A DNA stretch of 11,062 bases from NCBI GenBank assembly GCA_040752415.1, contig JBFMGU010000323.1, forward strand, positions 1 through 11,062, given 5' to 3'. The translations under genes and the position numbers were made by a program. Below are positions 1 to 10,790 of this stretch, piece by piece (position 1 is the stretch's first letter; each line of letters begins with the position of its first letter). The notes under the pieces were generated by a model. That model saw only the letters and a program-made list of their open reading frames with translations, was not told where the DNA came from and searched no databases. Source of the stretch: Myxococcota bacterium. GTDB taxonomy: Bacteria; Myxococcota; JACRCW01.

Positions 1-39
1 GTCGCGCCTTGTGCGCCCAGCGGACGCGGCACATCTACG

Positions 40-114
40 CCTCCCCACGCCGTGGGGGAGGTCGGCCGCCACGACGAGAAATCGGTGAAATCGTGAGGCG
101 GCCGGGTGGGGGGG
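40..114. repeat. GC-rich double-hairpin intergenic palindromic element (REP/CIR/RIME-like)
   Basis: Hairpin CCTCCCCAC-GCC-GTGGGGGAGG (40-61), then CGGCCGCC (63-70) pairing perfectly with GGCGGCCG (97-104) with inner CACGA/TCGTG, then GGGTGGGGGGG. The layout resembles intergenic palindromic repeats of GC-rich bacteria. Only one copy is visible here, so repeat status is inferred. Confidence 0.45.
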
Positions 115-274
115 CCGACCCGCCACCATCCCCGAGTGGTGACACGTTCCACCCCCCGTCGTCCCCCTGGGCCGGGTTCCCTTCGTGGCACCTGGCGGAA
201 TCCCGCCTGTGGCCGTGCCTCCGCTGCGGACTCCGGCCCATCCCGTCGGTACATGCACGGTGAGCCACCACGTC

Positions 275-280
275 GGGAGG
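275..280 (+). promoter_or_regulatory. Shine-Dalgarno site of the CBS gene
   Basis: GGGAGG ending 5 nt upstream of ATG 286. Confidence 0.75.
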
Positions 281-285
281 CCGCC

Positions 286-705
286 ATGTCCCTGGAAAGG
301 TTCTGTCGCAAGCACATCGTGTCCACCACGACGCAGCAGTCCGCGCTGGAGGCCGCGCAGCGCATGAACGAGTCGCACGTGGGCGCCGTGGTCGTCACCG
401 ACGACGGAAAACCCGTGGGCATGCTCACCGACCGGGACCTCGTGATGCGCGTGGTGGCGGAGGGCCGCGACGCCGCGCGCACGCCGGTGGGCGACATCAT
501 GAGCCGCGACCTGGCCTTCGTCTACGACGACGACAACATCGACTCCGCCGCCGCGTGCATGCGCCAGGCGGGGGTGCGGCGCCTCCCCATCCTGCACCAC
601 GACGGGACGCTGGCCGGCATGGTCACCCTCGACGACCTGATGGTGCTCTTCTCGGCGGAGCTGTCCACCACCGCGGGCGCGGTGCGGGAGAACCGCGGGC
701 CCTGA
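286..705 (+). CDS. CBS-domain pair protein (139 aa)
   Basis: In frame with ORF 106..705; start moved to ATG 286 because of the SD. Two CBS motifs: AAQRMNESHVGAVVVTDDGKPVGMLTDRDLV and MRQAGVRRLPILHHDGTLAGMVTLDDL. Confidence 0.92.
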   Translation: MSLERFCRKHIVSTTTQQSALEAAQRMNESHVGAVVVTDDGKPVGMLTDRDLVMRVVAEGRDAARTPVGDIMSRDLAFVYDDDNIDSAAACMRQAGVRRLPILHHDGTLAGMVTLDDLMVLFSAELSTTAGAVRENRGP

Positions 706-2204: not shown

Positions 2205-5171
2205 CTACGGACAGGGTGGGGCGAGGTTGGCGCTGCCCGGGCTGGGGGGCGCGAGCACGCTGAACCGGCGGCCGTCACGACGCCCATCCGCGCACCGTTG
2301 CACCGACTGGGCGTCCGAAGGACCAGGGGTCGCAGCCTCATCCAGCTGCACGCGGCCCGGGGTTCCCGTCGGTCCAAGCAGCGTGTCCAGCAGCGTGGGA
2401 TCGTCGGTGTCCCCGGTCTCATACACCAGCGCGTCGATCAGCCCGCTCGCGGTGACGGCGGTGTTGTTGGGGAAGTTGCTCGCCGCCGCCTGATAGATGC
2501 CCACGGCGTCCTGGCCGTTTTGCAGGGTGTTGCCGGGCCAAGTGATCGCGGGGGTCGGCAAGACGCCAGTGTTCCCGAGGAGGAGCAACCCGTTGGCGTC
2601 GGTGGACGCGTTCAGGTCCACCGCCAGGTAACTGACGTCGGTCGACCCGTTCCAGCCAATGAGCGAGTAACCCGCGAGCGACACGTAGGGGACGCCAGCG
2701 CTGATCTCCACGAACTCCGCTGCGTCCACGCCCGGCGTGTCCGAGTCCAGCTCATTGATCTGCAGCCGGATCACCGTGACGTTGTACGGCGTGGCCGTCC
2801 CGTTGGGCGTGGTGACCGTCAGGTCCTGCGCGCCCAGCGGCGTGGCGTCGTCGAGCGCGGTGACGGTGATCTGCGTGTCGGAATCCACCGTGAAGACCTG
2901 CGCCACGCCGCCCACCGTCACCGAGGTGGCGCCCGTGAGCTTGCGTCCCGTCGCCACCAGCTGGCCGCCGTGCGCAATCACCGCGTAGTCCACCGCGCTC
3001 ACCGTCGGGACCAGGCAGATCGGCACCGTGTCGCAGTCGGTGTCCGCGCAGTCCACCGCGCCGTCGCAGTCGTTGTCCGTCACGTCGGTGCAGTCCTGCT
3101 CCACCGTGCCGCCCGGGCAGAGGCATTCCACGGTCGCCAGCGCGCACACGCTGCCGTTGGCGTCACACGCCAGGCCGTCGCAGTCGGGGTCCGCGCAGTC
3201 CGCCACGCCGTCGCAATCGTCATCGCTGGTGTTGTCGCAGACCTCCGAGGTGCCCGCCGGACAGGTGCACGCCAGCCCGCTGCACACCAGCCCGAAGTCA
3301 CCGCAGCCCAGCCCGTCGCAGTCCTGGTCTTCGCAGTCCGCCAGGCCGTCGCAGTCGTCGTCGCTGGTGTTGGTGCAGGACACCTCGGTGGTGTTGCCGC
3401 TGGGGCACAGGCACTCCGCCGTTGCCAGCGCGCACAGGCCGCCGTAGGCGTTGCAGGACTGCCCGTTGCACTCGTCGTCCTCGCAGTCGGTGGCGCCGTC
3501 GCAGTCGTCGTCGGTGCCGTCGCCGCACAGTGTCTCGCTGCTTCCCGTGAGGCAGTTGCAGGTGAGGCTCCCGCAGGTCTGGCCGGAGAGGCCGCAGCTC
3601 AGCCCGTCGCAGTCGGTGTCCGCGCAGTCCACCGCGCCGTCGCAGTCGTTGTCGCTGGTGTCCCCGCAGCTGGTCTCCGGTCCGCTGCCCGCGCACTGGC
3701 ATACCTGGCTGATGCACACCTCGTTCACGTCGGAGCACACCTGCCCGTCGCAGCCGGCATCCTCGCAGTCCGCCAGGCCGTCGCAGTCGTCGTCGGTGGT
3801 GTTGCCGCACACCTCCACGGCGCTCTCACACTCGCACGCCAGGCTGATGCACATGAGCCCGTTGGCGCCGCAGGCCAGCCCGTCGCAGTCCGGGTCCTCG
3901 CAGTCCGCCAGGGTGTCGCAGTCGTCGTCGACGTTGTTGTCGCAGGTCTCCGCGTAGCAGCCGCACGCCTCGGTGAAGGTGCAGGTGTCATCCGCGCAGT
4001 CCACGGTGCCGTCCACGTCGTCATCCAGCGTGTTGGTGCAGTCCTCCGCGGGCACCATGTTCGCCGCGCCCGGGGTCACCGCGGTGGTCGCCGCCCAGTC
4101 GGCCTGCGCGTCGCCGGTGTCCTGCCCGTCGGGGAAGCGGATGAGTGAGCGGCTGGGGGTGGTGGCGCCCACGTCGTCAATGACGCTGGTGGCGGTGCCT
4201 TCCACCAGGCTCAGCGTCTGGCCGTCGACGGCGGCGTTGGTGAGGCTGCCCTCGTAGGAGAGCGCGTCCAGCAGCGTGTGGTGCGTGTGGTCGTAGAGCG
4301 CCACACCGTCGGGGCCGCCGTTCTGGATGAAGCTGTCGGTGCCGCTGGGGAAGGGCACCACCACCGCGCCGGCGCCAATCCCGGTGAGCCCCGGGCTGGC
4401 CACCACCAGGTACTGCCCCGACGCCAACGTGCCGCTGAGCGGGATGCTCTCGTAGATCAGGCCGTTGTTGCCGTTGACCAGCTCCAGCGTCACGCCGTCC
4501 AGCACCACCGGGCCGCTGCCCGCGTTCAAGAGCTCCACGAACTCCGCGGTGTCCGTGCTGGGCTGGTCGTAGTCCACCTCGTTGATCACCACGGTCCCGC
4601 ACACCGCCGCGGTGGCGCAGTCGGAATCCGCGCAGTCCACGTCGTTGTCGAGGTCGTCGTCGGTGGTGTTGGCGCAGTCTTCCGCGGGACCGCCGCTGCT
4701 GGATGACGAGGACGAGGTGGAGCTGGACGTGCTGGAGGACGTGCTGCCCGACCCCGCCGTCCCCGAGGAGGTCGACGACGAGGAGGAAGCGCTGCCCACC
4801 CCACCCGACGAGGAAGAGGTTCCACCCGTGGAGGAACTGGCGCCCGACGACGACGACGACACCGACGACGAGCTCTCCCCGCTGGAGGAACCGGAGGACG
4901 TGCTCGCGCTGCCCGACGACGTGGCTCCGCTGGAACTGCTGGAGCCCACCGTGCCGGAGGAGGACGACGCCTCGCTGCTGATGCCGCCGGAAGAGGAGCT
5001 CGACGACGAGCCGCTGGTTCCCGACGCCACCGACGAGCTGGTGGTGATCCCGCCGCTGGAGCTGGTGGATTCCTCCTCCGTCGGGGTGGTGCCGGTGCTG
5101 GTGCAACCCGTCAACGTCAGGAACAGCGCCATCCCCATCGTGGGGGTCCGCCAGGCCAGGGGTCTCGTCAT
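2205..5171 (-). CDS. Large surface lipoprotein: Ser-rich stalk, two lamin-tail-like domains, Cys/Asp repeats, IPT/TIG domain (~988 aa)
   Basis: Start moved to ATG 5171 (GGAG 6 nt upstream). Signal peptide ends in lipobox LTG-C. Ser/Thr/Gly tract; LTD-like domains VVINEVDYDQPSTDTAEFVEL...TPGAAN (~4059-4595) and LQINELDSDTPGVDAAEFVEI...SPGSAN (~2223-2768); IPT/TIG-like PTVSAV...TGATSVTVGG...DSDTQIT...VTTPNG (~2772-3008). Confidence 0.88.
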   Translation of the reverse strand: MTRPLAWRTPTMGMALFLTLTGCTSTGTTPTEEESTSSSGGITTSSSVASGTSGSSSSSSSGGISSEASSSSGTVGSSSSSGATSSGSASTSSGSSSGESSSSVSSSSSGASSSTGGTSSSSGGVGSASSSSSTSSGTAGSGSTSSSTSSSTSSSSSSSGGPAEDCANTTDDDLDNDVDCADSDCATAAVCGTVVINEVDYDQPSTDTAEFVELLNAGSGPVVLDGVTLELVNGNNGLIYESIPLSGTLASGQYLVVASPGLTGIGAGAVVVPFPSGTDSFIQNGGPDGVALYDHTHHTLLDALSYEGSLTNAAVDGQTLSLVEGTATSVIDDVGATTPSRSLIRFPDGQDTGDAQADWAATTAVTPGAANMVPAEDCTNTLDDDVDGTVDCADDTCTFTEACGCYAETCDNNVDDDCDTLADCEDPDCDGLACGANGLMCISLACECESAVEVCGNTTDDDCDGLADCEDAGCDGQVCSDVNEVCISQVCQCAGSGPETSCGDTSDNDCDGAVDCADTDCDGLSCGLSGQTCGSLTCNCLTGSSETLCGDGTDDDCDGATDCEDDECNGQSCNAYGGLCALATAECLCPSGNTTEVSCTNTSDDDCDGLADCEDQDCDGLGCGDFGLVCSGLACTCPAGTSEVCDNTSDDDCDGVADCADPDCDGLACDANGSVCALATVECLCPGGTVEQDCTDVTDNDCDGAVDCADTDCDTVPICLVPTVSAVDYAVIAHGGQLVATGRKLTGATSVTVGGVAQVFTVDSDTQITVTALDDATPLGAQDLTVTTPNGTATPYNVTVIRLQINELDSDTPGVDAAEFVEISAGVPYVSLAGYSLIGWNGSTDVSYLAVDLNASTDANGLLLLGNTGVLPTPAITWPGNTLQNGQDAVGIYQAAASNFPNNTAVTASGLIDALVYETGDTDDPTLLDTLLGPTGTPGRVQLDEAATPGPSDAQSVQRCADGRRDGRRFSVLAPPSPGSANLAPPCP
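3015..4049 (-). repeat. Intragenic tandem array of 8 Cys/Asp-rich repeats
   Basis: Core E-x(1-2)-C-x-N/D-x2-D-D/N-D-C-D-G-x2-D-C-x-D-x2-C repeated 8 times; six units are ~45-49 aa with 8 Cys each. A ninth, isolated copy lies at ~4599-4685. At DNA level GTCGCAGTC recurs. Confidence 0.9.
4695..5069 (-). repeat. Low-complexity Ser/Thr/Gly linker (~125 aa)
   Basis: Translation STSSSGGITTSSS...SSSSSSS directly after the lipoprotein N-terminus. Confidence 0.9.
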
Positions 5172-5195
5172 CGTCATCTCCGTGGAAGCGGGTGC

Positions 5196-5201
5196 ACCAT
5201 A
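5196..5201 (-). promoter_or_regulatory. Candidate -10 element for the lipoprotein gene
   Basis: TATGGT on the - strand (TANNNT), 24 nt upstream of ATG 5171. No good -35 seen. Confidence 0.3.
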
Positions 5202-5470
5202 CACCGCGCCCTCACCCCACGTGACGACCCGTCACCGCGGCTGGTAGGCATCGCTCATGCCCTCGCTGGTCGCCTGCACCTTGCTGGGGTTGTCTCTCTG
5301 CATGGACCGCGGCGACGGCCTCAACGTCTGCATGTAGCTCGTCGTCACACAACGCGGACACCTCCGCACCTTTCCGCTTCTGGCAACGCTTGCGTCCGCT
5401 TTCACCCTTGCCGCTCCGTGATCTGTTGGGAGAGGATCCCACGTCGATCTGCCGCGCGGGGTGCAGCTTC

Positions 5471-6628
5471 ATGGTGGATCAGAGCCCGGAAGGTCGTGTG
5501 ACTGCACTGCAGCGGACCCTGGTGGTGAGCAATGAGCAGCTGCTGCTGTTGGCCGCGCCGGACTGCGGCCCGTGGCTGGCGTGCTCCTCCCGCGCGCTGG
5601 GCACGCTGGGCGTGGTGCGCGTGGTGGCGGAGGCGCGGCTGAACGGCGCGCTGGTGGTCAAGGACCCGCGCGGGAGCCGCACGCTGCACTTCGAGGGGGG
5701 GCAGTTCATTGGCGCGCGCAGCGACCACGTCGCGGACCGCCTGGGCGAGGTGCTGTGGCGCCAGGGGCGCGTCTCCCTGGACCAGGTGCTGATCGCCGCG
5801 GAGATGATGAAGGAAGGGCGCAAGCTGGGCCGGTGCCTGGTGGACCTGGGCTTCATCTCCATGGCGCAGCTGCGCGCGGGGCTGGTGGACCAGGCGGCGC
5901 ACATCCTGGAGGCGGCGTGCCTGGAGGAGAACGCCACGCTGGTCTTCTCCGCCGCGCCCCCACCGGAGCGGCCCATGCGCTTTGGGCTCTCCCTGGACGC
6001 GCTGCTGGCCCGCGCCGCCCAGGCGCTCGACGAGGTGCGCGCGCTCCAGGCCACCCTGCCCCCGCTCCAGGAGCCGCTCCACCTCGAGCTGCTCACCCCG
6101 CCGGAGGCCATCAGTGAGAGCGAGCACGCGCTGTGGCAGCTGGCCGCGAGCGCCAAGCGCAATCTCACCGGGGAGGAGCTGCTGGAACGCTCCGCGCTGG
6201 GCAAGCGCCAGGGCCTGCGCGACCTCGCCAAGCTCCTGCAGGCCGGACATCTCTCGGTGGAGGGCGGCGCACCCAAGGGCCCCAGCCCCGAGCCCACCCA
6301 GCACGTCACCCACCAATGCCTGGCGCTGAACCTGGTCTTGCGCGTGCTGGACCGCGCGGGCTTTGGCGCCGGCGACGCGGTGCGGGAGCTGGTGGCCACC
6401 CCGCCGCCGCAACACGCTCCCGCGCTCAAGGGCCTCTCCCTGGCCGAGCCGCTGGACCCCGACGAGGTCCTGGCCTTGGCCCGCGAGAACACCGGCGGCG
6501 TGCACGCCATGGCCGCGGCGCTGCAGAGCCTGCTGGACGAGGCGCTGCAACAAGCGGGAGAGATCCTCTCCAATGAGGACGCGGTGGACCTGCGTCAGCG
6601 CGTGGAGGCGGTGCTGCCTCCCACGTGA
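5471..6628 (+). CDS. DUF4388/PatA-N-like domain protein (~385 aa)
   Basis: N-terminal signature LNGALVV...RTLHFEGGQFIGARS...DRLGEVLWRQGRVS.DQV..A......GRKLGRCLVDLGFIS..QL..GL..QA..IL, typical of deltaproteobacterial DUF4388 proteins. ATG 5471 preferred over TTG 5390; start uncertain. Confidence 0.75.
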   Translation: MVDQSPEGRVTALQRTLVVSNEQLLLLAAPDCGPWLACSSRALGTLGVVRVVAEARLNGALVVKDPRGSRTLHFEGGQFIGARSDHVADRLGEVLWRQGRVSLDQVLIAAEMMKEGRKLGRCLVDLGFISMAQLRAGLVDQAAHILEAACLEENATLVFSAAPPPERPMRFGLSLDALLARAAQALDEVRALQATLPPLQEPLHLELLTPPEAISESEHALWQLAASAKRNLTGEELLERSALGKRQGLRDLAKLLQAGHLSVEGGAPKGPSPEPTQHVTHQCLALNLVLRVLDRAGFGAGDAVRELVATPPPQHAPALKGLSLAEPLDPDEVLALARENTGGVHAMAAALQSLLDEALQQAGEILSNEDAVDLRQRVEAVLPPT

Positions 6629-7995: not shown

Positions 7996-8592
7996 TCAGG
8001 GGTTCCCGGTCGCCGCCGACGACGGGCGAGAGCGCCAGGTCCGCCAGGCCGCCCCCAGGCCGATCACGGTGGGCCAGGCCATCTCCACCACGAGCTTGAG
8101 GACCACGCGCTCGGGGTGGAAGCGGTTGCCCTCGTAGACCCACCAGCCGTCCAGGGGATGGTTGGGCAGCCAGGGCAGCTTCAGCCCGGCCCGCGTCAAG
8201 AGCACGCCCAGCAGCGTGAGCGCCGCCATGGGTACGTAGAGGTACAGCCCGGCGGTGATGGCGTTGCCGGCGGTGGTGCGTCGTCGGGAGAGCAGCGCCA
8301 CCAGGTAGAAGCCGGCGGCGGCAATGGCGCAGAAGATCAGCTCATTGACCAGGCGCATCCACACGAAGCCGTTGGCGGAGAAGAGCCGGCTCAGCGCCAC
8401 CGCAACGCTGACCTCCGCCGCCAGCGCGTAGCGCGCCACCGTCATGGGGAACGCCGCGGCCACCACGAGGATGGAGAGCAGGATGGGCTCCAGCGGGTCG
8501 CCCTCGCCGTCATGGAGGATGGAGAGGAGCGTGCGCACCGGTCTCACCAGGATCCCGCCCATGCGCCAGAGCACGCCGCGCAGCACGCTCAC
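7996..8592 (-). CDS. Integral membrane protein, possibly Yip1-like (~198 aa)
   Basis: 3' part of ORF 7996..9183. GTG 8592 overlaps the upstream stop (GTGA); ATG 8562 is an alternative start. About 4-5 hydrophobic segments; N-terminal GILVRPVRTL loosely recalls bacterial Yip1-domain proteins. Confidence 0.7.
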   Translation of the reverse strand: MSVLRGVLWRMGGILVRPVRTLLSILHDGEGDPLEPILLSILVVAAAFPMTVARYALAAEVSVAVALSRLFSANGFVWMRLVNELIFCAIAAAGFYLVALLSRRRTTAGNAITAGLYLYVPMAALTLLGVLLTRAGLKLPWLPNHPLDGWWVYEGNRFHPERVVLKLVVEMAWPTVIGLGAAWRTWRSRPSSAATGNP

Positions 8593-9650
8593 ACCTCGGC
8601 AAAGATGTACGGCTTGAGCGCGTCCAGCCGACGAGCCATGCCCTCCGGCTCCATCAGCCACAGCACCGCGCACAGGGCGCTGTACAGCTGCGTCCCCGTC
8701 CTCCCCGCGAACGCGAAGCCGGCGAGATTCACGTTGCGACTGCCGTGCACGCACAACGCCGCGTGCGGCACCACCAGGGAGTTCAGCAGCCGGCCGGCGT
8801 AGCCATTGTCGCGCGCGAAGCTGACCACGGGGTTGGCGGAGAGCTTCTCGGTGAGCGCCACGCGCGGCTCCTCGCGCAGGCGGGAGAGCAGCTCGCTCTT
8901 GCCCATGGGATCGGCGAGGCGGAGCTGGAAGTGCACCGTGGAGAGCAGCTGCGTGTGCAGCTCCACCGACGAGGAGAACACCGGCAGCGCGGTGTTGCCG
9001 CCCAGCACCAGGCTGGCGTCGCGGGCGTGGTGGGTGCCGAACTGCGGGTCGGGGTGGCGCTGGATGACCGGGCTGGCAATGAAGTCGCTGGCGGTGCCGA
9101 GCTCGGCAGCGGGCTCCATGAGCAGGAAGCGACTGTCCTCCAGGCCCATGCTCCCGTCGGGCTTGCGCGCCAGCGCGTGGCACAGCAGGGCGACCACGTG
9201 CGTGCCCACGTCGGGGATGGCGAGGAAGCGGTCGGTGCCACGACGGAGCGCGTCCTCGCTGATGCCGTGGATGAACGGCGCGCCAAAGGAGAGGTCCCCG
9301 CCCACCGCCACGAAGCCGCGCGTGCCGGTGAGCGCGGAGTACTGCGCGTCCTTGTTGGCCACGGCCGCGCCGGTGGTGTCCACGACGACGGTGGCGCGCG
9401 TCAGCGCGTCCGCGGGGGAGAACGCCACCTCCACGCCCATGCCCTCCAGGGCGGTGCGGGTGGGCCCCTCGGCGGCGAGCAGCACGCCGCGCTCCAGCAG
9501 CGCGCGCAGGGCGGGACGGTCGCTCTCGGCGGCGGAGCGCTTGTGCAGGGTGACCTCGGTCAGGCCCAGGTCCGCGCCAAAGTCCGCCAACAAGGACGCC
9601 AGCGTCAGCCCCGACGGCCCCGCCCCCACCACGTGCACCGTGCTCGTCAT
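8589..9650 (-). CDS. Type II (archaeal-type) glyceraldehyde-3-phosphate dehydrogenase homologue, catalytic Cys absent (353 aa)
   Basis: ATG 9650 is followed at once by the Rossmann motif VHVVGAGPSG. Also VVVDTTG (family: VVDCTP/DATP), AVGGD (QGGE/QGSE), FGTHHARD (HH motif), SFARDNGYAGR. The VVSCNT position reads IPDVGT. Confidence 0.72.
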   Translation of the reverse strand: MTSTVHVVGAGPSGLTLASLLADFGADLGLTEVTLHKRSAAESDRPALRALLERGVLLAAEGPTRTALEGMGVEVAFSPADALTRATVVVDTTGAAVANKDAQYSALTGTRGFVAVGGDLSFGAPFIHGISEDALRRGTDRFLAIPDVGTHVVALLCHALARKPDGSMGLEDSRFLLMEPAAELGTASDFIASPVIQRHPDPQFGTHHARDASLVLGGNTALPVFSSSVELHTQLLSTVHFQLRLADPMGKSELLSRLREEPRVALTEKLSANPVVSFARDNGYAGRLLNSLVVPHAALCVHGSRNVNLAGFAFAGRTGTQLYSALCAVLWLMEPEGMARRLDALKPYIFAEV

Positions 9651-9657
9651 GACGGTG

Positions 9658-9666
9658 TGGCTAGCA
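9658..9666 (-). promoter_or_regulatory. Candidate extended -10 for a leaderless transcript of the GAPDH-like gene
   Basis: TGC-TAGCCA on the - strand, 7 nt before ATG 9650; no SD. The final T of the hexamer is missing. Confidence 0.3.
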
Positions 9667-9790
9667 GAGCGCCCCGTGGCCTGGGAAGGCCCGACCTGCC
9701 AGTGTGTTCGTGCCGCCGACAACCACGGCGGTCGCGGTTCCCAATGCGCTGGTTACCAGCTGAATCGATCGAGGCCGGTTGTGCCGCATC

Positions 9791-9970
9791 GGTCCGAGCG
9801 AAAGCGGTACTTCATACCGCAGTCCGAAAGTGCCGGCGCGGAGATCGTGGTGGACAGTCGGGCCGGCACGGTTCGCTACGTCAAGCGGGTGCGGGCGCTC
9901 GCACCACCAGAAGTGAGCGGTGCCCGCACCCTTTCGGACTGCGGCATGAAGTGCCGCTTTCGCTCGGACC
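9791..9970. repeat. Inverted pair of structured modules (40-nt arms, 38/40 identical), candidate structured ncRNA or ssDNA element
   Basis: 9791-9830 GGTCCGAGCGAAAGCGGTACTTCATACCGCAGTCCGAAAG versus reverse complement of 9931-9970 GGTCCGAGCGAAAGCGGCACTTCATGCCGCAGTCCGAAAG. Two further hairpins lie between the arms (9830-9869, 9887-9931). Confidence 0.9.
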
Positions 9971-10061
9971 CCTGCAGGACGGCCGACCCGAATGACTCAA
10001 GCGTGACGACTTCGACGTGACCGCTGTAACGCCCTGGCTTCGTGTCATCGGTAAAGGGCGT

Positions 10062-10790
10062 TCACCCCAGGTGCAGCAGCGTGCGCACCGTCTCCACGAT
10101 CTGCGCGAGCCGCACCGGCTTGTGCATGAACGCCTGCACCCCGAGGTCCAGCACCTGCTCGCGCGCCTCCTGGTCCCCCGCGGTGATGACGAAGACCGGG
10201 GTGGCCTTGAAGCGCGGGTCGGCGCGCATGCGCGAGATGAGCGTGAAGCCGTCCATCACCGGCATGTGCAGGTCGGTGATGACCAGGTCCACCGCGGGCG
10301 CCCGGTTCAGCCGCTCCATGGCGGTGAGCCCATTGTCGGCGAACTCCACCGACACCTCCGGGCTCACCCCCTGCACCCGCTTGAGCGCATAGCCGTACAG
10401 CTCGGTGGTGTGCGGGTTGTCCTCGACGAGCAGGATCCGATAACCGCGCCCCGTCCCCTTCCCCGGTTCCCGGCCCGCCGCCTCCACCAGCGCACGCAGC
10501 CTGGCCAGGTCCGGGGAGCTGGGAAGGAAGCGCACCTGCATGCCCGCGGCGTGGTGCACGCTGGGGTCCTGCTCACCCAGCACCTCGGCGTCGATGCTGA
10601 GGGGCTCCATGAGCCCGGGGAAGCCCAGCCCCAGTCGGAGCCGCTCTCCCACGGGGAAGCGCTGCTCGGTGACAATGAGCGTTCCCTCGGGCGACAGCCC
10701 GTCGGTCCATGCCCGCGCAAGCTCCCCCAGGTGCGGGAAGTCCACGCGCAGCATCAGGTGGATCGGTTCCGGATGCGCGTCGGTGGTCAC
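10062..10790 (-). CDS. PilZ (myxobacterial type) plus response-regulator receiver protein (242 aa)
   Basis: N-terminal PilZ-like LRVDF...WTDGLSPEGTLIVTE..FPVGERLRLGLGFPG..EPLSIDAEV...GMQVRF. C-terminal REC with ILLVED, DLVITDLHMPVMDG, ITA and HKP. Confidence 0.9.
   Translation of the reverse strand: MTTDAHPEPIHLMLRVDFPHLGELARAWTDGLSPEGTLIVTEQRFPVGERLRLGLGFPGLMEPLSIDAEVLGEQDPSVHHAAGMQVRFLPSSPDLARLRALVEAAGREPGKGTGRGYRILLVEDNPHTTELYGYALKRVQGVSPEVSVEFADNGLTAMERLNRAPAVDLVITDLHMPVMDGFTLISRMRADPRFKATPVFVITAGDQEAREQVLDLGVQAFMHKPVRLAQIVETVRTLLHLG

Follow-up and report, generated by a model that had tools for sequence, protein, structure and literature searches.

A scattered hairpin repeat in a Myxococcota genome is most likely a REP/REPIN-type element and not a new RNA gene

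The closest described systems to the repeat reported here are the REP/BIME and REPIN-RAYT elements, represented by E. coli (TnpA-REP, PDB 4ER8) and Pseudomonas fluorescens. A further group, the TIRtrons or TIRYT (Di Nocera et al. 2013, PMC3733652), consists of RAYT-like genes flanked by inverted repeats that lack GTAG; according to the accessible part of that paper, these repeats include double palindromes and form moderately abundant families found as singles, dimers and clusters. The accessible text of the same paper makes no mention of Myxococcota (0 occurrences of 'Myxococc'). Our literature search found no paper naming both REP-associated tyrosine transposases and Myxococcus, and none on Myxococcus together with MITEs, judged from the titles listed; a search for the tail sequence of the repeat described below gave, among the matches listed, only unrelated primers.

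The locus studied here belongs to a Myxococcota bacterium (GenBank assembly GCA_040752415.1) whose genome assembly comprises 11.0 Mb in 520 contigs (68.9% G+C, 96.8% complete). The window is the whole stretch of DNA that was analysed, 11,062 nucleotides of contig JBFMGU010000323.1. Two inverted modules, which the original prediction had described, were confirmed on the sequence at the positions listed in Table 1; the repeat unit, however, reaches further than the two modules, over about 9732-10026. Pairwise alignment of positions 9785-9881 (plus strand) with 9876-9976 (minus strand) agrees with the claim that the 40-nt cores differ only at T/C and A/G, and both differing bases form one mutual pair in GCGG(T/C)A-CTTCA-T(A/G)CCGC. 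A repeat search of the window also recovered the second hairpin proposed for each copy, together with a longer inverted repeat that joins the two. The degenerate core pattern has two matches in the window against 0.03 expected. When folded in isolation, each module takes a three-way shape at minimum free energy, with folding just modestly stronger than that of shuffles (z -2.0 and -3.6), and the whole 216-nt stretch forms a single long hairpin with two side hairpins (z -11.5 as DNA, -12.1 as RNA). A coding reading of the site was rejected: the GC3 criterion does not call the long plus-strand open reading frames across it (8745-9995 and 8806-10020), and throughout the genome the repeat is intergenic. 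Elsewhere the window encodes a DUF4388 protein (5390-6628, plus strand) and a lamin-tail-domain protein of 999 residues (2205-5204, minus strand), both unrelated to the doublet.

Table 1. The inverted doublet, its parts and its neighbours, in window positions
Feature	Position	Strand	Remarks
Downstream neighbour gene	8589-9650	-	ATG at 9650; weak FAD-binding N-terminus, below the Pfam cut-off
Intergenic gap	9651-10061		between two minus-strand genes; contains the doublet
Inverted-repeat shell, decayed	9732-10026		about 295 bp
Left outer arm (shell), decayed	9732-9790	+	from alignment with intact subfamily members
Inverted repeat, both arms	9773-9830 / 9931-9988		58 nt, 84% complementary (repeat search)
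Module 1	9791-9875	+	
REP-like unit 1	9791-9830	+	lead, P2, tail; UA variant of the covarying pair
Unit 1 lead	9791-9803	+	GGTCCGAGCGAAA
Unit 1 core hairpin P2	9804-9820	+	GCGGTA-CTTCA-TACCGC
Unit 1 tail	9821-9830	+	AGTCCGAAAG
Second hairpin P3, type A	9830-9869	+	stem GTGCCGGC (9830-9837) / GCCGGCAC (9862-9869); interior varies between copies
Local hairpin in type A P3	9830-9840 / 9859-9869		91% complementary (repeat search)
Spacer between both P3 hairpins	9870-9886	.	holds the proposed P1 3' halves GTTCG and CAAGC (+), unconserved in the family
Module 2	9882-9970	-	
Second hairpin P3, type B	9887-9931	-	stem GGGTGCGGGC / GCCCGCACCC
Local hairpin in type B P3	9887-9896 / 9922-9931		100% complementary (repeat search)
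REP-like unit 2: tail, P2, lead	9931-9970	-	CG variant
Unit 2 core hairpin P2	9941-9957	-	GCGGCA-CTTCA-TGCCGC
Right outer arm (shell)	9971-10028	-	aligned with the C18 arm; matched by the shell profile at nhmmer E = 0.001
Upstream neighbour gene, PilZ + response-regulator receiver	10062-10790	-	stop codon at 10062

The motif had been described as present once per strand, which is true of the locus but not of the genome, where the window core GCGGYACTTCATRCCGCAGTCCG has about 110 copies, arranged as 35 convergent pairs plus singles. Searched as a 40-mer with up to three mismatches it gave 64 own-genome matches against 0 for the reversed control, and as a 26-mer with up to two mismatches 110 against 0 for the control. 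The outer span of the 35 pairs is mostly 124-157 nt, with two outliers of 319 and 559 nt; true singles number about 40, some 16 of them at contig ends, and the fragmentation of the assembly is partly explained by the repeat, because many units sit at contig ends. In the longer outlier (C412:29825-30383) the two units, 559 nt apart, are followed by downstream sequences that are near-identical over more than 85 nt, making this pair a far longer palindromic version of the element. The genome also holds a sister family, GCGGTATTTCAGACCGCACTCC, of about 118 units with the same architecture, including 20 convergent pairs about 160 nt apart, and units of the window family occur together with sister-family units in mixed clusters. 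A third, more distant family, GGGCGGCGAGGGCCCGCCGCACTCC, has 214 units, mainly in divergent pairs, and has only the tail in common.

Outside this genome, the window-family core was not found in the 40 relatives searched, the lineage having one same-family genome, and an exact 30-mer of the family gave 0 matches in metagenomes. A wider pattern found two metagenome contigs of lower G+C with AAAGCGGCACTTCATGCCGCACTCCAAA units, both with the sister tail ACTCC; one carries three to four units, and a small second hairpin follows each unit. A 1000-bp metagenome contig (L183, positions 1-450, minus strand) from an unrelated lower-G+C organism carries three to four units AAAGCGGCACTTCATGCCGCACTCCAAAC in direct orientation, about 83 nt apart, after a cysteine-rich ORF, and a variant unit there keeps the tail with a quite different hairpin (GCTAAAC/GTTTAGC). 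The core pattern with four Ns, searched against genome contigs, hit 113 loci with one match each and showed no repeat family; we set these loci aside as chance or coding matches, which among the matches listed fall mostly in Actinomycetota and Pseudomonadota.

Each unit of the window family is laid out as a purine-rich lead (CCGAGSSAAA), the near-invariant 6-bp hairpin P2 (GCGGYA-CTTCA-TRCCGC), the tail AGTCCGARAG and a second hairpin, P3, which spans 34-43 nt and has a conserved 8-bp stem base with a free interior. Conservation of the purine-rich junctions, as proposed for the two copies, extends to the family: the exact tail AGTCCGAAAG recurs in 82 of 108 units. The P3 stem base comes in a type A (GTGCCGGC/GCCGGCAC) and a type B (GTGCGGGC or GTGCGGCC, each paired with its own 3' arm), and 29 of 33 window-family pairs combine A with B, the window doublet having type A on the plus and type B on the minus strand. 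TGGTGG, which had been noted as retained in both hairpins, is indeed in both window units, but with 2 occurrences in 108 family units it is a local coincidence and not a conserved loop motif.

To assess the proposed structure, we aligned 57 distinct units with MAFFT and counted paired cells per helix. P2 is paired in 100% of cells, its variable pair being UA in 31 units and CG in 26 with 0 unpaired, and P3 in 91.6%, with pair 48-88 occurring as CG (28), GC (19) and UG (3). P1, by contrast, is paired in 48.6% of cells, and its central A-U is present in 11 of 56 units. The structure as a whole reaches 82.4% against 27-49% in slid controls, with the signal coming from P2 and P3. Pairing of the lead with its own downstream segment gives a mean helix length of 4.19, barely above the 4.07 +/- 0.065 of permuted partners. 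P2 and P3 are thus two hairpins under constraint, and selection on a single-stranded fold, as originally suggested, is borne out for these helices and not for P1; the shared model of a three-way junction closed by P1 has to be given up as a family feature, because P1 pairs in just 48.6% of cells. Genome-wide counts are of the same kind: P2 pair 5-13 is TA in 71 units, CG in 38 and TG in 1, pair 6-12 is AT in 107 and GC in 3, and 80 of 107 units have a P3 stem of 7 bp or more without a mismatch, compared to 14 of 202 shuffles. In a set of 49 TA-type units, pairwise identity is 98.4% in the core, while the P3 interior has 32% identity against 29% for shuffled partners. Either the resident copies are selected, or the cores are renewed apart from the interiors.

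A search for genes bracketed by units (region C476:44100-45200) led to an intact REP-associated tyrosine transposase gene at C476:44274-44873 (L172:175-774, minus strand). Its protein scores 80.6 bits against NCBIfam NF047646, 'REP-associated tyrosine transposase' (cut-off 80, E 1e-22), matches 0 Pfam families at E up to 1, and has as its best PDB match 4ER8, the E. coli TnpA-REP (E 5.4e-5). In the alignment with 4ER8, HYH lies over HMH and RYVMFNPVKHGLV over DYIYINPVKHGWV, which we take to be the HUH and catalytic-tyrosine motifs. Sister-family units stand beside the gene at 44257 (minus), 44988 (plus) and about 45065 (plus), and the reading frame enters the downstream unit without a stop; with some 230 units spread over 11 Mb, we estimate that chance would put roughly 0.03 units within 300 bp of a given gene. 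The linkage to a RAYT gene that had been proposed as a check exists for the sister family, but no RAYT gene found is flanked by the window family. NF047646 and tblastn searches of the assembly returned only C476, C512 and C12. The C512 gene (C512:9225-9803; L173) is a RAYT paralogue, 52% identical to the C476 protein and scoring 71.5 bits, whose flanks are inverted repeats of about 95 nt ending in GCACCGCACTCCAGG, which resembles the tail of the third family, GGGCGGCGAGGGCCCGCCGCACTCC. A PF01797 search of the genome gave two other Y1 genes, C12 and C24, with unrelated repeats in their flanks; the one at C24:5300-6400 (L056) is flanked by a different palindromic repeat, CCTGCCAATCTCATTGGCAGG, with 73 matches at up to two mismatches, both strands counted. 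Because the C24 gene is flanked by a different repeat at this copy number, the genome holds several independent REP-like systems. The window family flanks none of these four Y1/RAYT-like genes in the 520-contig assembly, in which a RAYT gene may possibly have been missed.

Beyond this genome, a C476-type protein is encoded in 3 of 301 genomes of the phylum, the present one included. The homologue in the second genome (G026) is flanked by GGCGGTGTCAAGCCACCGCACTCC, which has 48 copies consisting of a hairpin plus GCACTCC with a T-A/C-G compensatory split. In the third (G134) one unit adjoins the gene, a repeat search found no inverted repeat around it, and the 19 copies in the genome mostly have the tail TTTCC; the copies flanking both homologues have the tail GCACTCC. 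More than 700 homologues of the C476 protein are present in public data, and some, in Verrucomicrobiota and Acidobacteriota, are named REP-associated tyrosine transposase by NCBI.

We conclude that the window feature is probably a REPIN-type element of a dispersed non-coding repeat family, composed of two inverted REP-like units. The scattered hairpin repeat is most likely a parasitic element of the REP/REPIN type moved by a tyrosine transposase, and the window family is a new family within this known kind of element. Of the candidates originally listed, we thus favour the REPIN-like single-stranded DNA substrate of a trans-acting transposase, given that the sister family flanks a RAYT gene. 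A REP-associated tyrosine (HUH/Y1) transposase would bind the folded hairpin and tail on single-stranded DNA and then cut and rejoin it, and gene-free gaps would thereby gain new units, inverted doublets and clusters. A copy without its hairpin or its tail would no longer be propagated or kept, and the compensatory base changes may have arisen because such copies drop out. The enzyme could be the C476 protein acting in trans, a candidate by its linkage to the sister family, or a paralogue that has been lost or was not assembled; that the C476 enzyme moves the window family, which strand and cleavage sites it would use, and what the element would do to its two neighbour genes we can only infer. 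Several observations weigh against this explanation. No RAYT gene is flanked by the window family, and the tail AGTCCG differs from the ACTCC found near RAYT genes, making cross-mobilisation an assumption. Neither GTAG nor CGTC, the tags of the REP super-families set out in the accessible part of PMC3733652, is present in the units. Moreover, near-saturated interiors beside invariant cores would not be expected under simple, recent copy-and-paste of whole elements, and the statistics of genomic context given below depend on crude gene calls.

A decayed shell surrounds the window copy, whose flanks align with a subfamily of eight elements (C18, C62, C106, C256, C445, C258, C64 and C368) that share long inverted arms across about 290 bp. 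This raises the alternative that the window copy and about a dozen relatives moved as a MITE of about 290 bp, by means of a DDE transposase recognising TA-CAGCGGTTCCCGTTGAAGTTG termini, with the hairpin core as a passenger in long terminal inverted repeats; we regard this as possible but unlikely. The subfamily arms begin TA-CAGCGGTTCCCGTTGAAGTTGTCACG. In the window the right arm keeps this terminus, as CCGCTG at 10021-10026 (CAGCGG when reverse-complemented) with TA next to it at 10027-10028, whereas in the decayed left terminus TCGCGGTTCCC (9732-9742) is the counterpart of the subfamily terminus CAGCGGTTCCC, with no preceding TA. The shell presumably resembles non-autonomous elements of the IS630 / Tc1-mariner type. 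With up to four mismatches allowed, the 21-nt terminus of the subfamily has 80 occurrences, with TA before 48 of them (counted from the listing), and it also heads at least four other short inverted-repeat families of 220-360 bp, which share CAGCGGTTCCCGTTSRRGTTG, mostly preceded by TA (for example C85:200-553, C261:301-654, C334:51648-51887 and C484:27150-27388). One TA-CAGCGGTTCCCG family has a CCCTCC-rich interior. Nevertheless, a profile of the shell matches 21 of 224 upstream arms, the window right arm among them (nhmmer E 0.001), and leaves 203 unmatched, so that most units have no shell, and singles and shell-less pairs retain a perfect core. A full-length element with such termini was not seen, nor any pair of termini 1-2 kb apart, and a search of the assembly for DDE_3 (PF13358) genes gave 0 matches. 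Movement as a MITE would account for one subfamily and leave the existence of the core unexplained. We therefore treat the shell as a second, subfamily-specific layer and not as the origin of the core, while the shell family itself may have moved as a MITE.

We further considered where the elements lie relative to genes, using a crude GC3-based caller (7,682 genes covering 84% of the genome), on which all of the following context statistics rest. Among the 54 elements with two called neighbours, 41 are in convergent gaps, 11 in tandem gaps (including the window doublet) and 2 in divergent gaps, whereas 19-20% of all intergenic regions are convergent gaps; a slightly looser pattern gave 41 of 56 convergent, with p about 1e-17 against a 20% share. 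Overlap with called genes is at most 35% in 72 of 75 elements, and mostly 0%. Such a distribution would suit an explanation in which the units are primarily host elements, either two-way transcript-end or mRNA-stabilising hairpins or protein-binding DNA sites, selected at gene 3' ends, with mobility secondary or extinct. The accessible part of PMC3733652 gives the same bias toward gene ends for REPs and proposes RNA roles; cores that stay 98.4% identical beside saturated interiors suggest constraint on the resident copies; and the P3 mismatches, G.T in 12 cases and A.C in 4, are a weak hint of single-strand (RNA-like) selection, although too few to tell selection at the RNA level from that at the DNA level. 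Yet no T-run follows the hairpins, so they lack the mark of an intrinsic terminator; no terminator-like site lies within 9732-10028, and the sole one in 9500-10200 falls outside the element. Single units face either way relative to the nearer gene, a terminator has no need of an invariant lead-hairpin-tail of 37 nt, and a host role alone leaves unexplained why sister-family units flank a transposase gene. We consider a primary host function improbable on these grounds.

The original prediction had also entertained a new structured ncRNA or a self-cleaving ribozyme, with every 85-nt module forming a P1-P2-P3 three-way junction; in our judgement this is very improbable. Both window modules fold to that shape, P2 and P3 covary and the purine-rich junction strands are conserved, but P1 pairing is on a par with that of permuted partners, the modules folded in isolation exceed shuffles by a modest margin, the 113 copies lie in both orientations relative to genes, often as inverted doublets, and Rfam has 0 matching families at gathering score (the best in E-value mode, PtaRNA1, reaches 13.8 bits against a cut-off of 47).

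Returning to the REPIN-type reading, a more speculative extension, to which we give a minor share of our confidence, is that the units represent an undescribed bipartite class of REPs (AAAG, invariant hairpin, A(C/G)TCC tag, second hairpin) belonging to a widespread, mostly unannotated RAYT clade of several phyla; resident copies would be selected as two-way transcript-end structures between convergent genes and so have become domesticated, and the AGTCCG tag would mark a lineage that has escaped or outlived its transposase. In any case, what was a candidate "new ribozyme" is replaced by a testable pairing of REP and transposase in Myxococcota. The family also offers a natural experiment: invariant 37-nt cores beside fully diverged interiors, strict A/B doublets and a four-fold excess in convergent gaps are features that could separate the needs of the transposase from what the host tolerates or uses.

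How, then, does the family compare with the systems already described? Like the subterminal hairpins of IS200/IS605, the units join a hairpin to an adjacent short conserved sequence, likely a signal for recognition and cleavage of single-stranded DNA by an HUH/Y1 enzyme, but they do not form left and right ends around a transposase gene and are dispersed independently of it. The shell subfamily is like TA-duplicating MITEs in its long terminal inverted repeats that start CAG and are mostly flanked by TA, and in the several unrelated interiors found under one terminus; unlike MITEs, no matching transposase was found in the DDE_3 search, the TA could belong to the repeat, and the shell is missing from most units of the hairpin family. 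With TIRtrons, as far as the accessible part of PMC3733652 describes them, the present genome shares a RAYT-like gene with non-GTAG repeats and the occurrence of singles, dimers and clusters, whereas their shared motif GGGGWSAS is absent from the window-family units.

The comparison with REP/BIME and REPIN-RAYT goes furthest. Classical REPINs are shorter than the window-family doublet (about 180 nt). The present units differ from them in being bipartite, with an invariant hairpin and a second hairpin of 34-43 nt, in forming doublets that are A/B heterodimers, and in having AAAG-hairpin-A(G/C)TCC(G/C)ARAG as the conserved flank; CCGAGCGAAAGCGGTACTTCATACCGCAGTCCGAAAG contains neither GTAG nor CGTC on either strand, the tag classes being those given in the accessible part of PMC3733652, and within the assembly the window family lacks a RAYT of its own. 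As in REP/REPIN, on the other hand, a short extragenic hairpin repeat is present in about 100 copies, inverted doublets that form a long hairpin occur alongside singles and mixed clusters, compensatory changes keep the stems, the copies are biased toward gene 3' ends, and a single-copy HUH/Y1 gene of the RAYT type is flanked by units, here those of the sister family. The window family stands apart in lacking both the tag and a flanking RAYT of its own, while by its copy number, its palindromy, its doublets, the covariation of its stems and its location it belongs with REP/REPIN in the broad sense.
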